Shown here piece after piece: positions 55,566 through 63,709 of a stretch of 64,000 nt of DNA. The notes beneath the pieces are model-generated. The model searched no databases and had not been told where the DNA came from. It saw only the letters and a list, made by a program, of their open reading frames with translations. Position 1 is the stretch's first letter. Every line of letters begins with the position of its first letter. Location: the IMG/VR virus record IMGVR_UViG_3300025732_000019; one strand, written 5' to 3'. The DNA comes from a virus. Position numbers and translations under genes: made by a program.

Positions 55566-56579
55566 TTAGCCAACAATAAACTGCGGCGGTTCCTGAAACT
55601 CTGTGCGCACTTGTTCTTCCAAATCGCGAATTTCCTGTTGCGCTTCTGACAGAATCGCACGACCGTCAAGATTCACTCCGCCGGGTAATGCGATGCCCGT
55701 GTACTTGGAAAGATTCAACCCCCATTGACGCTTGATCAAGGATGTGGCATACCGCTGCAACCACCGATCACTCCATACATCGGTATACGCTGCGGGGTCG
55801 ATGGTGCGATACCCTTCAAGCACAATGTGCTGACCGGGCGCGAATGTTGCATACCAGTTCACATCGACGTAGAGACGATTCATGTGTCGTGAGAAGCGCA
55901 CCGATGGCCGACCACGGAATGTGTCGTTCAGCAACTGCTGATACGAACGACCAATGTGATACGGGATGATTGAATTGGAGGTGAAGTTCGACAACAGCGA
56001 GATATTGAACTGCGACTGCGGGTCGAACAGAATATCCGCAGAGATGCGCGAATCGAACGGGGGAAATACCTTTGTAATGCCAATCACCGAATCGACAACG
56101 GGAAACCATTTGTTGTCCATGTCGCCAAACGTCACACCGTTGGCTGCCACAGTACCAGTCGCGCCCGATTGCTTGCCCAGAACAACTTCTCCCGCCACAA
56201 ACGTCTTGCGAGCGGTATCACTGTAACTATCTGTGGTCGCAGCGCCGGTATTGGATGAGGCGACCGTAAAGAAAATAATGGAAGTTGAATTGACGGTACG
56301 CGTGACGATGCCTTGCACGTTTGACGTTTGACCGACAATCATTTCACTATTGGTAAAGGTTCCCGTGGTCGCTCCGGTAAACAGTAGTGTGCTGCCCGTT
56401 ACCTCATGGCGCATATACGTCTTGACCACCGCATCCATGTGATACTGCTGATAGACGTATAGCGACTCATCGATGCGATCTTCCACTTGCGCATCAGAGA
56501 CGTTGATCTGAAGTACACCATCGCCAAGAGCGCGAAGGCAATACGATTTGAAATCGTTACGTGTAGTTGGAATGGCCAT
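55566..56579 (-). CDS. gp13: neck protein (gp13)
   Basis: YCLR.LG....INV...Q.EDR, K.QWG.NL.KY.G..LPGG. Confidence 0.92.
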   Translation of the reverse strand: MAIPTTRNDFKSYCLRALGDGVLQINVSDAQVEDRIDESLYVYQQYHMDAVVKTYMRHEVTGSTLLFTGATTGTFTNSEMIVGQTSNVQGIVTRTVNSTSIIFFTVASSNTGAATTDSYSDTARKTFVAGEVVLGKQSGATGTVAANGVTFGDMDNKWFPVVDSVIGITKVFPPFDSRISADILFDPQSQFNISLLSNFTSNSIIPYHIGRSYQQLLNDTFRGRPSVRFSRHMNRLYVDVNWYATFAPGQHIVLEGYRTIDPAAYTDVWSDRWLQRYATSLIKRQWGLNLSKYTGIALPGGVNLDGRAILSEAQQEIRDLEEQVRTEFQEPPQFIVG

Positions 56580-56585
56580 AAAAGG

Positions 56586-57941
56586 TTACGAAGCCCATTT
56601 ATTGGTACCGACAGGCAGCACGAGGCGGCCTCCGGTGCTATCGAAACGTGCAATCGCATTGACACTGACATTCGCTCGCAAATCCGCGGCCCCCAATACG
56701 GCGAGTGTGCTATTGAGTGTGGTGGCGCCTGTGACCCCGAATGTACTCAGCGCATTGACTGCGCCTGTCACGCCCAAGGTACTCAGCGCATTGACTGCGC
56801 CTGTCACACCGAAAGTGCTCAATGCATTCACCGCGCCGGTCACGGATGCGGTATTGCTGAACGTGGCCGCCCCGGTAATACTTGCGGTTCCACCTATCGT
56901 CACATTACCGAATAGCGAATTGCCTACGACGTGTAACGGAGATGTGGGTGAACTGATATTCACGCCGACACGGTTGTTGACGGTATCGACAAACAAGACG
57001 TTGCTATCAACCGCGACGTTACTGGTAAATGACGCCACACCCGTCACATTGACGGTATCACTGAATGTGGCGGCGCCAGACACAGATAATGTCGTGCTGG
57101 TGCCTGCAGGTGCCGCCAATAACCGCCAACGACCTGTGGCTGTGGTGTACAATAGCGGAATTGAACCACCGGGTGGCACGTCAACATCTTGGTTGGAGAC
57201 AGTCTTGAATCGGTTCAGGGCGCTCGATGACGGGTCTTCACTCTTGAGCGTAATCTTATAGGAACCGGATAGGTTCTGAAGGTATAGTACTTTAGCACCG
57301 ATAGACAGGTTTGTGGGAGCGACAATACCCGTCAGAATAATATTCTGCGTATCCGGATTCATGTGCACGACTTGCGCATCGTGCAATCCACTGGGATTGT
57401 AATTGTCGTATTGTGCTGACGACACGGTAGCCGCAATAACTGCTCCACTTTCGCTGAACAGAATTGACCGCATGTAGGCGGTGTTCGATGCCACCAGATT
57501 GTTCGCAACGGAAACGTTGCTTGCAAATGATGCAACATTACCGATTGTCAGTGGCCCAGATGCGGTAAATGTGACCGCACCATTAAATGTGGCGGCAGCA
57601 TTCACCGATAGCGGGCTGGCGTTAACGACGGTTCCACCGGGCGACTGGAATAGTGTCGTATTCGCGGACACACTGACGACCAGCGCGGAACTATTGACAG
57701 AGACGTTGGCGCCAAATGTCGAGTTTCCCGCAAGAAAAAGACCACTCAAGTTCGCGAGCGTTTTTCCGCCATTAAGCGACAGACTCGTATTTGTATGGGA
57801 AGAATTACCAATCGTGAAGGCACCGATAGCATTGCCGCCCACAACGACGGTATTGCTATTCAAAAGATCAATAACCGTATTGGTACGGGTGACCCATGTG
57901 CGGAACGTATCGGTAGTTTGTATCGGTGTAATCAGTGGCAT
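56586..57941 (-). CDS. fibre-like virion protein
   Basis: S/T/N/V/G-rich beta repeats; LFVDTVNNRVGVN...P...LHV.G; termini shared with 61985-63697. Confidence 0.75.
   Translation of the reverse strand: MPLITPIQTTDTFRTWVTRTNTVIDLLNSNTVVVGGNAIGAFTIGNSSHTNTSLSLNGGKTLANLSGLFLAGNSTFGANVSVNSSALVVSVSANTTLFQSPGGTVVNASPLSVNAAATFNGAVTFTASGPLTIGNVASFASNVSVANNLVASNTAYMRSILFSESGAVIAATVSSAQYDNYNPSGLHDAQVVHMNPDTQNIILTGIVAPTNLSIGAKVLYLQNLSGSYKITLKSEDPSSSALNRFKTVSNQDVDVPPGGSIPLLYTTATGRWRLLAAPAGTSTTLSVSGAATFSDTVNVTGVASFTSNVAVDSNVLFVDTVNNRVGVNISSPTSPLHVVGNSLFGNVTIGGTASITGAATFSNTASVTGAVNALSTFGVTGAVNALSTLGVTGAVNALSTFGVTGATTLNSTLAVLGAADLRANVSVNAIARFDSTGGRLVLPVGTNKWAS
56725..56843 (-). repeat. 36-bp tandem repeat x3.3 (VTGAVNALST[F/L]G)
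   Basis: Units start at 56725, 56761, 56797 and 56833. Confidence 0.85.
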
Positions 57942-57950
57942 AGATGTCTA

Positions 57951-57957
57951 TATTTAG
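57951..57957 (-). promoter_or_regulatory. late promoter
   Basis: CTAAATA, 9 nt from the ATG. Confidence 0.6.
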
Positions 57958-59258
57958 GTAAAAGTTGTCATGACTCCCATTTCCACGTTCGGTGTACGAA
58001 TCAGGGGCGCGGGTGTGCCCACATGATATTGTTCACACAAGGTGCGCACGTCGATTTTTGCTTGCCAATCACTATAGCAATATGGAAACTGATATGGTAT
58101 TTCTCGAATCCACGCCGCAACATTACTTGCGTCTGACGGAGACATTTCCGTCAGACGTGCAGGATTAAACAGCACCGCTGTAGGGTTCCAGTCGCGCCAT
58201 GTGCCGTCTTGAATACGAGCCGCAGTAAACCGTGCTGTCGGAGAAATCGGATGTTGGGCACGATGAATCGCGTCAGCGTTCGTATCCACTCCCGCAATAC
58301 GAATATCTGGTCTATATATAGTTAGTCGTCGCAGCAGATGCCCATTTCCGCATCCGAGATCCAACACACGTGCCTGCTCCGGTAATTGCGTCGCTAACGC
58401 AGGGATCATATCTTCGTGAGTCGTACGCATGCCTTCTGCAGACGAAAATTGATTATCCTTCCATAGCGTCTTTCGAACACGCTCATAGTGCCCCGTACGA
58501 AAGAACTGCTGTTTCTGCGGCGTCCAGTCGCTGCGTGTTGAGATCTTCAACGCAGGTGTGACGATCTCCGCAATACCAAATAGTCGTGACCACTTTAGCG
58601 GCCATGACAAGACTTCACGAATGGTGTGCATCTCCTCACGGTATCCATGTGCGCAACCCAAATCAAACATCGCGTGACCGATGCGTTGCGACGCGTCGCA
58701 CGTATAGGAACACGGCATATGCGACACCAAACGCAGGCCCATCCAGCGCAATAGGGTGCTCGCGTAGGGGTCGCTATTCGGATGCGCACCCTCGCGTGTT
58801 TGTTCCCACGTGCTATCGACACGACCCGCGCCCCATGTGGCATCATACGCGTCTCGGCAGCAGGCGGGATAGCCTAAGAGTTCGCCATACTGCGCATCGG
58901 TTTGTGGAAACGCCCGGTCATAGTATTGCGGGTTCAAATACAAAACCCGATAGACGAATTTTCCATCGCGAATGGGTTGAGAGGTGCTGCTATACGAAGA
59001 GGCAACACCTACGGTAGTTTGTGGTACGCATAGAATGTTATGCCGCGCAGCCCAGCGGGTGGCCTCAATAAGACCATCGGAAGGAACATTCTGAAACGCG
59101 GCGGGTCGCAGACCGTGCACAACAGCCAATCGTTCGACATCTTGATACGCATTACTCGCACGCGTGAACAATGGTTGCCACCACTCGCGTTCATCAGCAC
59201 TGCGCCATGACCATCGTGTCCAATCCGGGAGTACCGGAACATTATCTCTTGTTGACAT
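57954..59258 (-). CDS. Cys-motif (DUF483-like) domain fused to class I SAM methyltransferase
   Basis: LLGYPACC, HMPCSYTC; VLDLGCGNG, GVD; SD GGAG before ATG 59258. Confidence 0.75.
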   Translation of the reverse strand: MSTRDNVPVLPDWTRWSWRSADEREWWQPLFTRASNAYQDVERLAVVHGLRPAAFQNVPSDGLIEATRWAARHNILCVPQTTVGVASSYSSTSQPIRDGKFVYRVLYLNPQYYDRAFPQTDAQYGELLGYPACCRDAYDATWGAGRVDSTWEQTREGAHPNSDPYASTLLRWMGLRLVSHMPCSYTCDASQRIGHAMFDLGCAHGYREEMHTIREVLSWPLKWSRLFGIAEIVTPALKISTRSDWTPQKQQFFRTGHYERVRKTLWKDNQFSSAEGMRTTHEDMIPALATQLPEQARVLDLGCGNGHLLRRLTIYRPDIRIAGVDTNADAIHRAQHPISPTARFTAARIQDGTWRDWNPTAVLFNPARLTEMSPSDASNVAAWIREIPYQFPYCYSDWQAKIDVRTLCEQYHVGTPAPLIRTPNVEMGVMTTFT

Positions 59259-60585
59259 CTGTATGATCTCCATGATCAGAATAATCACCGTGGGGAACGT
59301 CATCGTGCGTATGGGGCTGTGTATCCGTATGATCGCCGTGCTGGTCACCGTGCTTCGTCGCGGGTGTGGTGCTCGATGACGGCTGCGTGTACTTACTCAA
59401 ATATGGCGTTTCTTCTTGCGACCATGCGGCGTACATCTGCGCTTCAATTTCTGTGCGCTTGGGGTGCTCGGAAAACGGCACTTCACCCGCGGCGCGAAGT
59501 CGTCGTGCGCCTTCCGCAAATAGACGCTTGAAGGTGCCGCAGTACGTGGAGCGCATGCGCCAATCGTGATTCGCGCCTTCACCGGGGCATTGCCCGTAAC
59601 ACATGAGCCAATATTCACATCCCTGACATCCACCGTATTCCTGCGGCGTGACATACAACGCAAGTTGTCGTTCAAAATGTCGAGCACCGGGATGACCGAT
59701 AAACGTTGAAGCACCGTTTTTCGTGCCGCATCCTTCGGCCGGCAACCAGTTTTGACCATCCTTATTGGTGCGTGAACAATGCGACGGCGAACCATCATTC
59801 TCAATACCATTTACTGCACTGGTATTCCACGGGTCGCAAGGTTTCCAATGACATACGACTGAATCTCCGTTCCCGCGCTGGAGTTTCAGGATCTCGTCAA
59901 ACTTGGAGATGCGCAACTGTTTGAATGAAGGCAGGATATTCCAGATCTCAATCAGCCGATCTGCAATCTCCTCACTAGGAAGATACAGTTCGTGCGCTTT
60001 ATGATCCATCTCCATCAAATGCATATTGACATGACGCACACCCATTGTGTCTAGTTCGTGCAACCATTCAAGAAATCGAGGAAAGCGATCCGCTCGGCAG
60101 TTGCCGGCATGCAGCGTCACGATCAAACTGGGGAGTAAATGCGGAGTGGTGACCGCGCGGCCGCAGAGTTCTTTCAATGCCCACATGGTACGTTGTGTCT
60201 GTTTTCGTGTCGCCTCTAAAGTGCCTGCCCATCGACTATCGTTCAGTTCATCGGGGCCATCCATTGAGATGCCCACATGCGTGTTATATTTGATGAAGAG
60301 TTCGATGTGTTTTTCGGTAATGAGCGACGCATTCGTTTGCACACCCGAATGGCCAAAACGTGTGTGCGCGATCTGTAACAGTTCGTCTAGATCTTTGAGA
60401 GAAAGAATGAGAGCTTCGCCCCCAAACAAGGAGAAGTATTCGTCCGGCTTGAGCTTGTCGATGGCTGCAAGCACGGCCTTACGGTCATACTTGTGAGATT
60501 TTTGCACATTGCGCATTTCCGTTTCGTAACAATACTTGCATTGTATGTTGCACGTAACACCTACAGGTCTAACTTCAATACTCAT
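59242..60585 (-). CDS. radical SAM/SPASM maturase with His-x-Asp tail
   Basis: CNIQCKYC, GGE, QTN, ISMDG; SPASM C...C...CQGCEYWLMCYGQC...YC. Confidence 0.92.
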   Translation of the reverse strand: MSIEVRPVGVTCNIQCKYCYETEMRNVQKSHKYDRKAVLAAIDKLKPDEYFSLFGGEALILSLKDLDELLQIAHTRFGHSGVQTNASLITEKHIELFIKYNTHVGISMDGPDELNDSRWAGTLEATRKQTQRTMWALKELCGRAVTTPHLLPSLIVTLHAGNCRADRFPRFLEWLHELDTMGVRHVNMHLMEMDHKAHELYLPSEEIADRLIEIWNILPSFKQLRISKFDEILKLQRGNGDSVVCHWKPCDPWNTSAVNGIENDGSPSHCSRTNKDGQNWLPAEGCGTKNGASTFIGHPGARHFERQLALYVTPQEYGGCQGCEYWLMCYGQCPGEGANHDWRMRSTYCGTFKRLFAEGARRLRAAGEVPFSEHPKRTEIEAQMYAAWSQEETPYLSKYTQPSSSTTPATKHGDQHGDHTDTQPHTHDDVPHGDYSDHGDHTDVNKR

Positions 60586-60601
60586 AATAAACTACTTTCT
60601 C

Positions 60602-61261
60602 CTATGAACCTACGTAGACGGGTTGATCGTTATGTGCGACGTCACTGTGTGTGTCGTCATGAGAGGAACTATCGCTATGCACAGAATCCGTATGCACATC
60701 GACGTGCCCATCGCTGAAATAATCGGCATGATCCGCATGATTGTCGGTATGAGTGTCACCATAATCTGTATGCCACTCTGGCGCATCGTTGTGAAAATAC
60801 GTATCGGTATGTACGTCATCATGATACGAGTCGGAATAGTCTGTATGAGATGAATAATAATCGTCGTGATCACTATAGCCGGCCGCGTCGCCATGACTTA
60901 CACTATCACTATGTGAGTCAGTGTGTGCAATATCATCATGCACCGCATACTCATAGTTATTGTTCCCGATAATCCGCAGTTGTACGTTTCCAGTGGAGGC
61001 ACTCGTGCCTCCGCTATTCGACACCCAAATAGAACCCGCAATAGCGCCTGTGCGGTTCGCAATCGATGTGACGTTGAGTGTGCGGGCAAACCCACTGGCA
61101 TCAACATAGCGAAGATTGGTGCCTTCCACCCACAACGAACCCACAATAGCACCAGATGCTAAACCGGTATTGCTGCCAATCGCGTACCACTCGACACCAG
61201 ATGCATCGATGTAATGTACGGTGTTTCCGGCGACCCAAATGCTACCTGCTGTTTTTGCCAT
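60602..61261 (-). CDS. His-x-Asp repeat protein 2 (19 HxD)
   Basis: GS[I/L]WV x3 N-terminal domain plus HxD/YxD repeat region. Confidence 0.85.
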   Translation of the reverse strand: MAKTAGSIWVAGNTVHYIDASGVEWYAIGSNTGLASGAIVGSLWVEGTNLRYVDASGFARTLNVTSIANRTGAIAGSIWVSNSGGTSASTGNVQLRIIGNNNYEYAVHDDIAHTDSHSDSVSHGDAAGYSDHDDYYSSHTDYSDSYHDDVHTDTYFHNDAPEWHTDYGDTHTDNHADHADYFSDGHVDVHTDSVHSDSSSHDDTHSDVAHNDQPVYVGS

Positions 61262-61265
61262 AATC

Positions 61266-61982
61266 TTATCCTACGTAGACGGGCTGATCGTTATGCGCAA
61301 CGTCACTGTGCGTCACATCCGCATGTGCCACATCGTTGTGTGTGGCACTATCGCTATGTGAATCGCTATGCACAGAATCCGTATGCGAATCGACGTGCCC
61401 ATCGTTGAAATAATCGCCATGATCGGCGTGATTATCGGTATGAGAGTCGCCATAATCTTCATGATACTCCGGCGCATCGTTGTGATAATATGTATCGGTG
61501 TGCGAGTCATCATGATACGAGTCGGAATAGTCTGTATGAGATGAATAATAATCATTGTGATCACTATAGCCGGCAGTATCACTATGTGAATCGTAATGAG
61601 TTACGCTATCGGTGTGCGTAATGTCGCTATGCGGCACATCGGTATGCGACACATCATCATGCACTGCATACTCGTAATTATTGGTGCCGATGATGCGAAG
61701 TTGCACATTACCGGTATTCGCGCTGGTGCCCGAGGTGTTCGACACCCATAGCGACCCCGCGACAGAATTAGCGCGGCTCGCAATCGTCGCGACATTCAGT
61801 GTGCGCTTGTATTGGTTCTCGTCGATGTACGCGAGATTACTGTTTTCGACCCAGATGGAACCGGCGACCGCATTCGAGACAAGACCTGTATTGCTCCCAA
61901 TCGCATACCATTCAACGCCCGAAGCGTCAATATAATGAAACGTGTTTCCGGATACCCACACACTGCCTGCGGTCTTAGCCAT
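61266..61982 (-). CDS. His-x-Asp repeat protein 1 (23 HxD)
   Basis: Paralog of 60602-61261. Confidence 0.85.
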   Translation of the reverse strand: MAKTAGSVWVSGNTFHYIDASGVEWYAIGSNTGLVSNAVAGSIWVENSNLAYIDENQYKRTLNVATIASRANSVAGSLWVSNTSGTSANTGNVQLRIIGTNNYEYAVHDDVSHTDVPHSDITHTDSVTHYDSHSDTAGYSDHNDYYSSHTDYSDSYHDDSHTDTYYHNDAPEYHEDYGDSHTDNHADHGDYFNDGHVDSHTDSVHSDSHSDSATHNDVAHADVTHSDVAHNDQPVYVG

Positions 61983-61984
61983 GA

Positions 61985-63697
61985 TTATGTTGTCGCGTAC
62001 TTATTCGCACCTACCGGCACGACGAGTCTTCCGGAAGTCGTGTCACATCGCACGATACCGTTGGCGCTGACAGAGCCGGCACTCCCGCTGACGCGAAGCA
62101 ATTCAAGTAATGATTGATTGTCTGTATTTGCAGTGCCCACATATCCGATGATGACGTTGCCTGCATCCGCACGCAGTACCGCACCAGCACGTGTGCCGCG
62201 TGTGCGATAGGTATCGCTGTTGGTACCGGCTTCGCAGTTGAATGCGATGAAAGGCGCGCCAGTGGTTTCACTGCCAATAACGGACTGAAACCCATCGTTG
62301 GCCGCGCCGAACTCCATTGACGACCCGCTGCGTCGCACACTCAGGAGTGCGCTGGTGACGGAACCGTTCACCGCAGCATTTCCCACATAGACACCTGTGC
62401 TGTTCGCAACGATCAGGTTCGCGCCTATTGTGGTGTTGCCCGATACGGTAAGTGTACTGAGAGTACCAAGACCGGTGATGCCGGTATACGCACCCGACAA
62501 CTGCGCGTTGGCCAATGTGCCCGTAGTAATGTTCGTCGCGTTCGTATAGTAGGAAGCGGCTTGACCATTGAGATACGTGGTGTTATTCGCCGAATACGAT
62601 GTACCCGTAAACACGGTAGAGTTGACGACAGCGCCATTCAACCCGATACTGCCTGCGGTAATCGCGGTGTTGACGGAACTGTTGCCAACAAAGTACGCGG
62701 ACACATTCAACGAGACGTTTGCGCCCAGCGATACGCTACTGACGAGCAGCGCGGAACTATTCAGACTGGTATTGACAGAGGAGTTTCCAAGTGTGAGTAC
62801 ACTGCCGGTAAACGACAGGTTCGCTGATGCATCAATCGCGTTGGTGCTGGTGTTCCAATATTGCACCGCACCATTTCCACCTGCGCTACTTCCACCCGAG
62901 ACGGTACTCCAATACGCAGTCGTTCCATTTGACGTGAGCACCTGTCCAGAAGTGCCAGTGCTACCATTAGCAGTAATGGTTCGATCTACGGGCACCACGA
63001 GGCCCGTCGTAATCGCGGAAGACGTAATCGTCGTATTGACGCTACTGTTCCCTATGACAATCGCTGACGTGTTACTGACCACATTCGCGCCGACGGCCAG
63101 TGCTGTAGTATTGGCCACGACGTTGCCTGTCGTCACGGTTGTGAATGACGGAGTGTCCGAGATCGAAACCGCAACGCTTCCCGATGATGCATTGACGGAG
63201 ATTGGTAGTTGCCCAGCAAGTGCGGTGACACCAAGATTCGTGATGACGCCGGTGCTGTTACTATAGCCAATACCCGCACCATTGCTTACCGCGGCACGTG
63301 CGCGAGTATCGGTATAGTATTGATTGGTGCCTTCGGGAACAGCCGTCGTATTGATCGCGGCGCCATTGAGAGTGAGTGTGCCACTGACCGTCAGATTACC
63401 GGTACTTGTGTTTGTGCTCACATTCAATGTGGCAATTGATGCGTTTCCGCTGACGACCAGCGCGACGGTATTGATCGTGGCGTTGACAGTTAGATTGGCG
63501 TTTGCAGAGGTGTTTCCACGCAGACTCGTCGTCGCGAGAACCGTCAGCGTATTCGTCGTGATCTGCTCGACGACCAAATTACCGGAGATGTCACCAATTT
63601 TCAATACATTCGTGTTGAGTTCCGTCGCTACCGCATTGACGGTTGTGACAAGATCTTCGAACGTATTTGCAAGTGTCAGTGGATCGATAGTGGCCAT
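61985..63697 (-). CDS. fibre-like virion protein
   Basis: VPEGTNQYYTDTRARAA, GTSGQVLTSNG, YLNGQAASYY fibre motifs. Confidence 0.8.
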   Translation of the reverse strand: MATIDPLTLANTFEDLVTTVNAVATELNTNVLKIGDISGNLVVEQITTNTLTVLATTSLRGNTSANANLTVNATINTVALVVSGNASIATLNVSTNTSTGNLTVSGTLTLNGAAINTTAVPEGTNQYYTDTRARAAVSNGAGIGYSNSTGVITNLGVTALAGQLPISVNASSGSVAVSISDTPSFTTVTTGNVVANTTALAVGANVVSNTSAIVIGNSSVNTTITSSAITTGLVVPVDRTITANGSTGTSGQVLTSNGTTAYWSTVSGGSSAGGNGAVQYWNTSTNAIDASANLSFTGSVLTLGNSSVNTSLNSSALLVSSVSLGANVSLNVSAYFVGNSSVNTAITAGSIGLNGAVVNSTVFTGTSYSANNTTYLNGQAASYYTNATNITTGTLANAQLSGAYTGITGLGTLSTLTVSGNTTIGANLIVANSTGVYVGNAAVNGSVTSALLSVRRSGSSMEFGAANDGFQSVIGSETTGAPFIAFNCEAGTNSDTYRTRGTRAGAVLRADAGNVIIGYVGTANTDNQSLLELLRVSGSAGSVSANGIVRCDTTSGRLVVPVGANKYATT

Positions 63698-63702
63698 ACC
63701 GA

Positions 63703-63709
63703 TATTTAG
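63703..63709 (-). promoter_or_regulatory. late promoter heading the fibre-HxD-rSAM-MTase operon
   Basis: CTAAATA, 5 nt from the ATG. Confidence 0.65.

Follow-up and report, generated by a model that had tools for sequence, protein, structure and literature searches.

A radical SAM/SPASM cassette with His-x-Asp repeat proteins in the tail-fibre region of a T4-like phage: a candidate system for fibre-tip protein maturation

Genes of the cassette

The window, a 64,000-nt stretch of viral DNA (IMG/VR record IMGVR_UViG_3300025732_000019), originates from a T4-like phage, and the cassette sits in it between two fibre genes. According to the gene calls, all cassette genes are on the minus strand. 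The features are listed below with the evidence for each.

63703-63709, minus strand: CTAAATA late-promoter-like motif, 5 nt before the fibre-1 ATG
61985-63697, minus strand: fibre-like protein 1, 570 aa, no His (gene call)
61988-62032, minus strand: fibre-1 C-terminal tag, last 15 residues (alignment)
61266-61982, minus strand: His-x-Asp protein 1 (HxD1), 238 aa (gene call)
61662-61982, minus strand: HxD1 N-terminal cap domain, three beta-hairpin repeats (AF2, alignments)
61269-61661, minus strand: HxD1 repeat tail, 23 His-x-Asp motifs (motif count, AF2)
60602-61261, minus strand: HxD2, 219 aa, cap domain and 19 His-x-Asp motifs (sequence)
59242-60585, minus strand: radical SAM (rSAM)/SPASM enzyme, 447 aa (PF04055, Cys motifs)
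59245-59352, minus strand: rSAM C-terminal tail, 7 HxD motifs (sequence)
57954-59258, minus strand: Cys-domain/methyltransferase, whole gene (gene call)
58419-59258, minus strand: DUF483-like domain (alignment, AF2)
57954-58418, minus strand: class I SAM-dependent methyltransferase domain, fused to the DUF483-like domain (Pfam)
57951-57957, minus strand: second CTAAATA motif, 9 nt before the fibre-2 ATG
56586-57941, minus strand: fibre-like protein 2, 451 aa (gene call)
56589-56630, minus strand: fibre-2 C-terminal tag (sequence)
55566-56579, minus strand: gp13-like gene (gene call)

The gene order given in the initial annotation (fibre, HxD1, HxD2, rSAM, Cys-domain/methyltransferase, second fibre, gp13-like gene) was confirmed, and re-measurement of the gaps (2, 4 and 16 nt) and of the 17-nt overlap gave the same values. 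It should be noted that the overlap assumes ATG 59258 as the start of the last enzyme, with which the N-termini of homologues agree. The CTAAATA motif claimed ahead of the fibre gene is present and is late-promoter-like by sequence. This motif has 16 copies in the window, and since 12 of them sit 1-24 nt 5' of the start of an ORF (ORFs of at least 60 aa), it can be regarded as a real gene-start signal. Tail-fibre PHROGs were found upstream of the cassette and neck genes downstream, with fibre 2 directly preceding the neck genes gp13/gp14/gp15.

Repeat tails and their putative maturation enzymes

HxD1 and HxD2 are 79% identical. In their C-terminal halves every His is followed by Asp at +2 (23/23 and 19/19, respectively), exactly as had been counted by hand, and 20,000 shuffles of the tails gave on average 4.8 and 4.3 such motifs, with maxima of 13 and 12. 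One further His per protein, H16, is located in the N-terminal domain. The YSD/YGD triplets also reported there are real, YSD occurring twice and YGD being present in each tail, but only 6 of the 14 Tyr in HxD1 and 4 of the 11 in HxD2 obey the x-D/N rule. The HxD1 tail contains no Lys, Arg or Cys and ends with a conserved D-Q-P-V-Y-V-G. Its AF2 pLDDT is mostly below 60 over most of the tail (block means 44-63), so it is not expected to be a regular fold on its own; the AF2 model thereby agrees with the proposed view of the "precursor", in which a long multi-motif tail follows a folded domain.

Across the family (65 distinct proteins, 2444 His in repeat regions), the +2 residue is D in 86% and N in 10% of cases, and the repeat regions contain hardly any Lys, Arg, Cys or Trp. 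The spacing of the motifs is irregular (3-9, mode 5), as is more readily expected of enzyme sites used independently than of a solenoid fold. The candidate substrates bear 9-93 motifs on folded, often very large proteins, and Laminin_G_3, Gly_rich_2 and DUF2341 domains were found in the long forms.

The rSAM enzyme belongs to the radical SAM superfamily based on PF04055 (53.7 bits, cutoff 29.5), and its cluster motif CX3CX2C (C12/C16/C19) and GGE are invariant in 22 sequences. Read by eye, the SPASM pattern with two auxiliary clusters (CX9-15GX4C ... CX2CX5CX3C ... C) is represented by C250, G265, C270, C320, C323, C329, C333 and C349, all invariant in the 22 sequences; a Pfam profile search returned no separate SPASM match at E <= 0.01. 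Most rSAMs of the phage clade carry their own HGDHTD-type C-terminal tail, which is conserved in that clade.

As had been anticipated, NCBIfam profiles placed the enzyme near cyclophane (triceptide) synthases and anaerobic sulfatase maturases; each of the 22 members tested had anaerobic sulfatase maturase, AmcB, YhhB, GrrM/OscB, FxsB and XyeB as its closest curated families. The scores were below the cutoffs both for triceptide synthases (AmcB 69.9 vs. 425, YhhB 45.7 vs. 445, GrrM 37.5 vs. 310 and XyeB 36.3 vs. 450 bits) and for the sulfatase maturase (69.2 vs. 349 bits), and the PDB match to anSME covers only residues 2-116. Because the enzyme reaches about 70 bits against cutoffs of 349-425 in the nearest families, no reaction type is transferable, and judged by its sequence it joins no curated family. 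A sulfatase-type substrate motif, C/S-x-P/A-x-R, was ruled out, as the HxD tails are without Arg or Cys. The HxsB model gave 30 bits against a cutoff of 370, and its match begins at profile position 91, which indicates that the N-terminal RRE is absent. Membership in the HXS system was also ruled out: the window has a single rSAM, no RRE, and HxD rather than HxS repeats.

In the adjacent gene product, the DUF483-like domain (AF2 pLDDT 92.8) has invariant residues E42, C133, C134, D148, R176 and C187 and near-invariant H180 and C183. Its PF04467 score is 15.8 bits, with 20.4 for phiLo and 24.6 for a cyanobacterial homologue (gathering threshold 25). The ESM Atlas clusters resembling this domain are 100% viral, with PF04467 in 28-43% of their members, and comparison with PDB structures found no clear fold. 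The fused domain is assigned to class I SAM-dependent methyltransferases by Methyltransf_31, _23 and _25 (34.1, 31.2 and 29.5 bits, all above the cutoff of 27) and by the consensus VLDLGCGNG.

His-x-Asp is a classic iron-binding pair, and in T4-type fibre tips iron is held by His-x-His motifs. It is conceivable, though rather unlikely, that metal binding is the main role of the HxD tail, as a filament in which His and Asp would hold columns of Fe, Zn, Mn or Ni in a similar way, and that the rSAM performs chemistry other than ring formation, such as epimerisation to D-residues, ether formation, conversion of Asp to aminomalonate or an HXS-like +8 Da change. Such a reading accords with the His-x-Asp pairing, with the composition of the tail (16% His, 17% Asp and no basic residues), with the lack of a predicted fold for the apo tail, with the equal closeness of the rSAM to the anaerobic sulfatase maturase and to cyclophane synthases, and with the non-cyclophane mass change known for HXS. 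However, a regular trimeric metal column is difficult to build on the irregular 3-9 residue spacing, metal binding alone leaves a dedicated rSAM in nearly every locus unexplained, and D/N is strictly kept at +2 (96%), in agreement with a requirement at the beta-carbon of that residue.

Recurrence of the gene set and a proposed fibre-end cap

Dozens of phages and many bacteria have this gene set as well. Of 65 viral loci, nearly all have an HxD-rich ORF adjoining the rSAM, mostly directly upstream, and in 59 of the 65 a DUF483-like ORF is located downstream; 19 control loci with distant rSAMs contained neither. The possibility that rSAM homologues are unlinked to HxD proteins elsewhere was checked and clearly fails, i.e., the link is general. 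The adjacent candidate substrates with aromatic-x-x motifs that characterise triceptide systems are thus represented, in almost every viral locus, by H-x-D/N ORFs.

In bacterial or haloarchaeal genomes, all 27 family loci pair the rSAM with DUF483 (as a fused ORF in four), and their HxD partners include peptides of 63-155 aa. About 8 of these loci have no HxD ORF within 6 kb. Four cellular loci have in common a conserved leader type, FSRRxLxxAGW, and one of them (L092) encodes a PqqD-like protein alongside. By sequence, short leader-bearing HxD peptides together with a PqqD-like protein represent a RiPP architecture in some cellular versions. The recurrence of the gene set in phages and bacteria suggests that a fibre-tip protein of the virion is probably the target of chemical modification by these enzymes.

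A different function was proposed in 2024 for a three-gene rSAM module of Thermus phages and prophages, namely DNA modification (10.1101/2024.08.14.607894). Accordingly, the rSAM and the DUF483/methyltransferase protein would modify phage DNA, and the HxD protein would be an unrelated neighbour. The same work reports that homologues adjoin deazapurine DNA-modification genes in cyanobacteria, and the one cyanobacterial locus examined by us has QueC-like and tRNA-methyltransferase-type domains nearby. However, that locus also has genes for a PqqD-like peptide-binding protein and for a peptide that starts with a leader and terminates in two HxD motifs. Furthermore, the enzyme is of the SPASM peptide-maturase type, the phage-clade enzyme itself bears HxD motifs, and HxD adjacency is near-universal in viruses. 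The evidence does not favour DNA modification, and we consider it very improbable.

Residues 1-107 of HxD1 were modelled by AF2 with pLDDT above 90 and contain three copies of a repeat of the type G-S-x-W-x-E-G ... H-Y-x-D, whose G/W columns are invariant in the cap domain alignments. Since about 40 of 129 longer cap-domain proteins have no HxD tail, the cap seems to be a more general module. Fibre 1 matched no Pfam, NCBIfam or PHROG family in profile searches, and the fibres are without family assignment. The second fibre had been described as a paralogue of the first; the two do share about 35 N-terminal and 41 C-terminal residues, but the rest differs, so they are not full paralogues. Both terminate in one conserved C-terminal tag, and in the alignment conservation is confined to the last ~13 residues. 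The tag was found in 29 of the 65 viral loci, in 23 of them at the end of the product of the gene upstream of the HxD gene, and in none of the controls (0/19 and 0/53). In 15 of the best 150 cap-domain proteins, the tag motif precedes the cap by about 10 residues in the same chain.

A complex model of the HxD N-terminal domain with three fibre tails reached an ipSAE of 0.84 (best control 0.00), the three tails contacting the three repeats at residues 1-12, 37-47 and 72-83. The runs had at least 97% of contacts in common, with partner pLDDT of at least 85. An ipSAE of 0.84 was attained by 58 of 80 solved complexes and by 2 of 110 mismatched pairs, counts that hold only roughly here because our own alignments and three copies were used. 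The N-terminal domain is thus predicted, by modelling only, to hold three fibre tags. The conserved tag, the gene fusions and the complex model lend support to the initially suggested structural role, here placed at a fibre end.

By analogy with HxsA, it may also be that the cassette is non-structural and that HxD proteins are rSAM-matured intracellular or periplasmic effectors not kept on the virion, acting in superinfection exclusion, anti-defence or as fibre assembly chaperones. HxsA, a matured repeat protein, acts in the periplasm against phage DNA entry, some bacterial HxD proteins have twin-arginine-like leaders or membrane anchors, and fibre-tip partners such as chaperones are often encoded beside fibres yet do not stay attached. 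This appears improbable for the phage proteins, which have no signal peptide and whose repeats are fused to lectin-like/glycine-rich fibre domains or to a cap for which binding to fibre ends is predicted; in the window, a late-type start motif precedes the genes, and structural genes surround them.

Based on the above results, we suggest that the cassette is probably one copy of a widespread protein-maturation system that combines a three-socket cap, a candidate rSAM substrate tail and a location at the virion fibre end. The N-terminal domain is most likely a single-chain, pseudo-threefold cap gripping the three C-terminal tags of a fibre assumed to be trimeric; the window would have two caps for two tagged fibres. 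The His-x-Asp string may serve as the substrate of the rSAM/SPASM enzyme, assisted by the DUF483-like domain and, in the window, by the fused methyltransferase. The enzymes would act while late genes are expressed in the infected cell, and the tail, once modified, would be placed at the free end of the virion fibre. Our best guess for the chemistry is a triceptide-type ring between His C2 and the beta-carbon of Asp/Asn at +2, with a change of -2 Da per motif and possibly methylation afterwards. As a result, a floppy acidic tail may be converted into a protease-resistant, metal- or pH-responsive filament. The full version of this scheme is more tentative: a ribosomally made protein tail turned into a His-Asp cyclophane chain by RiPP-type enzymes of the phage, methylated in some lineages and snapped by the cap onto a trimeric fibre tag, may act as a protease-proof, metal-/pH-sensing host-contact filament.

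Small natural products of bacteria are the known setting of radical SAM peptide chemistry, to which a single bacterial defence protein was added in 2026. The present data tie an enzyme class of this kind to host-contact fibres in viruses across bacteria and archaea. If the proposal is true, radical-SAM post-translational chemistry would here be seen for the first time on a structural protein of a virus. The modification, if real, would be a further level at which phages construct and toughen their receptor-binding parts, and enzymologists would gain a multi-site cyclase that is processive by nature and has a new partner domain (DUF483-like). In addition, a simple tag-and-cap joint is suggested, which could be used to read or engineer fibre assembly.

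Comparison with known systems

In Salmonella phage S16, gp38 is a monomeric tip adhesin on the trimeric fibre gp37. There, as proposed here, a single chain on the end of a three-chain fibre forms the distal tip. No sequence or fold likeness was found, however, and in the cassette a short C-terminal tag would sit in a three-repeat cap, the distal part being a candidate enzyme-modified repeat string.

For the triceptide synthases HaaB (HAA), YhhB (HNR) and HtkB (HTK), crosslinks from His C2 to C-beta at +2 are established (PMC11499958). These enzymes share with the window rSAM the rSAM/SPASM organization without an N-terminal RRE and an aromatic-x-x substrate motif, often in multiple copies. In contrast, the window rSAM scores 46-70 bits against cutoffs of 425-445, the motif here is H-x-D/N on folded proteins instead of short peptides, and the HxD system has an obligatory DUF483-like partner and is virus-encoded among fibre genes.

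The initial statement that no phage system like this had been described does not stand, as it is preceded by the above Thermus-phage module and by the HXS antiphage system (PMC13128918), a published case of an rSAM-matured repeat-bearing protein, HxsA. In HXS, too, the matured protein is not a small peptide; it joins a binding domain to His-x-small-residue repeats in tandem. The rSAM is likewise aided by a small partner protein, and the system bears on phage-host contact. HXS itself is bacterial and defensive: it has two rSAMs, each with an RRE, its HxS repeats are basic and five in number, and the product is cleaved at the N-terminus and then exported, whereas the HxD cassette has one rSAM, many acidic HxD repeats and a DUF483/methyltransferase partner and is phage-encoded.

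The cultured Thermus phages Cumys and phiMa (PQ109079, MH673674) carry the cassette as the same three genes in the same order, located after baseplate and collar-fibre genes. Their rSAM is 37-38% identical to that of the window, and the 343-aa protein upstream combines 54 HxD motifs with the cap domain seen in the window; it is preceded by a 97-aa protein with the terminal tag. Their DUF483 protein, unlike that of the window, has no methyltransferase fusion. The repeats, the tag and the idea of a substrate are absent from the published account (10.1101/2024.08.14.607894). With these cultured phages and the 63-aa bacterial candidate substrates, the idea of HxD protein maturation is directly testable.

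Gene layout and surroundings of the cassette

The cassette is carried on a viral contig of 94.7 kb. Re-measurement of the window genes agreed with the initial annotation: the gaps are 2, 4 and 16 nt long, and the overlap is 17 nt.

Genes of the cassette in the window and the genes beyond it
61985-63697, minus strand: fibre-like protein 1
61266-61982, minus strand: HxD1, cap domain plus His-x-Asp repeat tail
60602-61261, minus strand: HxD2, cap domain plus His-x-Asp repeat tail
59242-60585, minus strand: radical SAM/SPASM enzyme (rSAM)
57954-59258, minus strand: two-domain enzyme (DUF483-like + methyltransferase)
56586-57941, minus strand: fibre-like protein 2
Beyond fibre 2: T4-type neck genes, namely gp13-like head-tail adaptor, gp14 (PF11649) and gp15 (PF16724)

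Based on the gene order, fibre 2 occupies what we take to be the position of the T4 whisker gene wac, just before gp13. In the neck gene, the cultured phages closest to this one are T4-like cyanophages (~42% identity), and the 5.8-kb cassette region gave zero megablast matches among 50,697 phage records. Proteins of tail-fibre PHROGs are located upstream of the cassette; four tandem paralogues (~480-507 aa) of phrog_19111, a family without a name, precede the tail-fibre genes (L165:1968-9534, in the genome upstream of the window end).

The window has 16 copies of the sequence CTAAATA. For 12 of them, an ORF of 60 aa or more starts 1-24 nt downstream, and both fibre genes are among these ORFs.

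Start-linked copies of CTAAATA
2968, 7638, 9688, 19884, 20471, 41973: plus strand
63709, 57957, 47227, 41919, 40874, 33498: minus strand

Because 12/16 copies adjoin ORF starts, CTAAATA is considered a real start-linked signal. It had been proposed as a late promoter; the link to starts was borne out, and the late timing is putative. Should it act as a -10-type late promoter, many late transcripts would have little or no leader.

His-x-Asp proteins, fibre tag and cap domain

The count of Asp at +2 for every His in the C-terminal halves of HxD1 (23/23) and HxD2 (19/19) was confirmed. When the tail residues were shuffled, a mean of 4.8 and 4.3 His, respectively, had Asp at +2, and never more than 13. 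Both tails lack Lys, Arg and Cys. Across 65 distinct family proteins, the residue at +2 is Asp for 86% and Asn for 10% of the 2444 repeat-region His residues, and the motifs are irregularly spaced (3 to 9 residues, mode 5). In the AlphaFold model of HxD1, the N-terminal 107 residues have pLDDT >90, and most of the repeat tail has a block-mean pLDDT of 44-63. Irregular spacing and low tail pLDDT are as expected for a string of independent enzyme sites and not for a regular fold.

No families for the HxD proteins or fibre 1 were found in Pfam, NCBIfam and PHROGs, the single match of HxD2 (Atu4866) being below threshold. In long-form HxD proteins there are lectin-like and glycine-rich domains of kinds that are typical of the proteins with which phages recognise their hosts. 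Short-form proteins end in D-x-P-x-Y/F-V/I-G-P, with Pro invariant in 27 sequences. This motif could have another HxD protein's cap as its partner or could be an enzyme recognition site.

End motif D-x-P-x-Y/F-V/I-G-P in the window (AF2 pLDDT 84, short strand)
61269-61290
60605-60628

Both fibre-like proteins close with the same short C-terminal tag; they are the sole two tagged ORFs in the genome and match the HxD proteins in number. Their description as paralogous applies to the two ends, which are common, but the rest of the sequences is not shared. Among the 65 viral loci holding the rSAM family, the tag ends some ORF in 29, and in 23 the tagged ORF directly precedes the HxD gene; it is absent from control loci (0/19 viral and 0/53 bacterial). 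In the aligned tagged proteins, only about the final 13 residues are conserved.

A word-indexed search with the cap domain gave only 18 proteins, all without names, and an exhaustive profile search was far larger (635 cluster representatives). Among the best 150 of these 635 matches, 86 of the 129 longer proteins contain at least five Hx[DN] motifs, and 15 of the 150 have tag motif and cap in a single chain, the tag coming first and the cap ~10 residues later; by sequence this is a Rosetta-stone fusion. About 40 of the 129 longer proteins (P0146-P0287) have a cap, a domain of three hairpin repeats, without an HxD tail; in some a Cys-rich end follows, and in others the cap forms the C-terminal end of a larger protein. 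The cap domain is therefore a wider phage module. In a VIA-align wide search, its top match was the beta-prism II lectin-type bacteriocin LLPA, an identity that was rejected, Z 4.0 being too weak to name the fold. A BFVD search gave one significant match only, a 342-aa viral protein without a name.

The cap domain was also modelled in complex with the C-terminal 80 residues of fibre 1, present in three copies. The complex reached an ipSAE of 0.84 (best control 0.00), a mark attained by 58/80 solved complexes and 2/110 mismatched pairs, although these counts are only rough here because our own alignments and three copies were supplied. Contact agreement between runs was at least 97% and partner pLDDT at least 85, with three tails (residues 67-80 of each fragment) placed on three cap repeats. 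The model supports a predicted docking of three fibre tails on one cap domain. The HxD proteins would be caps for tagged fibre ends.

The radical SAM enzyme and its DUF483-like partner

The CX3CX2C and GGE motifs and the full SPASM cysteine pattern of the rSAM are invariant, and an N-terminal RRE is absent. For 22/22 members tested, the nearest curated families were the anaerobic sulfatase maturase and the cyclophane synthases AmcB, DynA, YhhB, GrrM/OscB, FxsB and XyeB, with scores of ~70 bits vs cutoffs of 349-450. These profile scores place the enzyme in the neighbourhood of those families and as a member of none. In PADLOC, the only matches were generic ones to viperin-type rSAM and methyltransferase. 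More than 700 rSAM relatives were found in metagenomes. Most phage-clade rSAMs end in an HGDHTD-type motif, and some contain as many as 32 HxD motifs within the enzyme itself; most bacterial members are without such a tail. At two loci (L007:6001-9451 and L011:6001-9390), the HxD gene and the DUF483/methyltransferase gene flank two tandem rSAM paralogues, each with a long HxD tail; the arrangement recalls the HxsB/HxsC pair.

The DUF483-like domain was modelled confidently (pLDDT 92.8). Its invariant residues E42, C133, C134, D148, R176 and C187 and near-invariant H180 and C183 suggest a metal or cluster site. Neither Foldseek against PDB nor the VIA-align wide search gave a solved structure accounting for the fold; at E <= 0.001, Foldseek returned zero PDB matches for this model and that of HxD1. 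The top VIA-align matches, 2guk (function unknown, Z 7.7) and the NleE cysteine methyltransferase (Z 4.4), were rejected as too weak to name the fold, and the CC/CxxxC domain was also considered as an ATE1-like aminoacyl-transferase, which had no fold-search support. Structural look-alikes in the ESM Atlas were all viral. The methyltransferase half is of the common class I type. Thermus phages lack it, and the rSAM and the DUF483-like domain therefore form the system's core.

Distribution, proposed modification and known systems

Thermus phages Cumys, phiMa and phiLo encode rSAM homologues (37-40% identity). In Cumys and phiMa, the protein encoded before the rSAM has 343 aa, the N-domain seen in HxD1 and HxD2, and 54 HxD motifs; the one encoded after the rSAM is annotated as DUF483 and is a homologue of the two-domain enzyme's N-terminal half. 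In phiLo, IS605-type transposase genes occupy the expected HxD position, and a 433-aa ORF with 72 HxD motifs lies ~4 kb downstream on the other strand (L003:11807-13108, minus).

One outcome named as refuting the initial proposal was a lack of linkage between rSAM and HxD genes elsewhere. An HxD-rich ORF adjoins the rSAM, mostly directly upstream, in nearly all of 65 viral loci, with a DUF483-like ORF downstream in 59/65; most exceptional loci are cut by a contig end. At control loci with more distant rSAMs, either ORF was found in 0/19. Cellular loci (many bacterial phyla and two haloarchaeal lineages) pair the rSAM with a DUF483-like protein in 27/27, fused in one ORF in 4/27, and have an HxD ORF nearby in about 19/27, some being 63-155-aa peptides. 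The test therefore favours the rSAM-HxD link.

Fused rSAM-DUF483-like ORFs (Nannocystis and Bryobacterales genomes)
L089:6001-8667
L091:6001-7977
L093:6001-8061
L097:6001-8037

Bacterial HxD precursors with the FSRRxLxxAGWxxPV-type leader
L085:8784-9206
L088:8219-9022
L092:5254-5835
L107:8277-8546

The Bryobacterales fused loci are adjoined by 63-87-aa HxD peptides. The leader conserved in four cellular precursors looks like a twin-arginine signal, and its role would be that of an export signal or a RiPP leader. At one of these four loci, from a cyanobacterium, a PqqD-like protein is encoded beside the leader peptide, an arrangement that, judged by its genes, is classical RiPP architecture. 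DNA modification has been suggested for the rSAM module of Thermus phages (10.1101/2024.08.14.607894); this reading is not favoured, because the cyanobacterial locus, which is of that type, has genes for the PqqD-like protein and for a leader peptide with HxD motifs at its end.

On Nanohaloarchaeal and Halorubellus contigs, the same type of cap-plus-HxD protein is encoded along with the rSAM and its DUF483 partner (L109:687-1349, L110:4701-5660), and the system therefore spans the bacteria-archaea boundary. The archaeal copies are presumably carried on viruses.

Based on the above results, we suggest that the rSAM and the DUF483-like domain would jointly modify the HxD tails during infection, inside the host cell. 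The likeliest reaction would be ring closure from His C2 to the C-beta of Asp/Asn, as is established for HAA, HNR and HTK motifs (PMC11499958); the almost invariable D/N at +2 agrees with a requirement at the C-beta of this residue. Thioether, Lys-Trp and sulfatase-type chemistries are excluded on composition, because Cys, Lys, Trp and Arg are missing from the tails. The reaction may instead be epimerisation, ether formation, aminomalonate formation or a change like the +8 Da one of the HXS antiphage system (PMC13128918), and the tails may serve mainly in metal binding.

Neither HxD repeats together with rSAM enzymes nor the modification of phage fibres by an rSAM was the subject of any paper returned by full-text searches. 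The rSAM module of Thermus phages was already noticed in 2024 (10.1101/2024.08.14.607894), and the HXS system is a published precedent for a protein substrate (PMC13128918).
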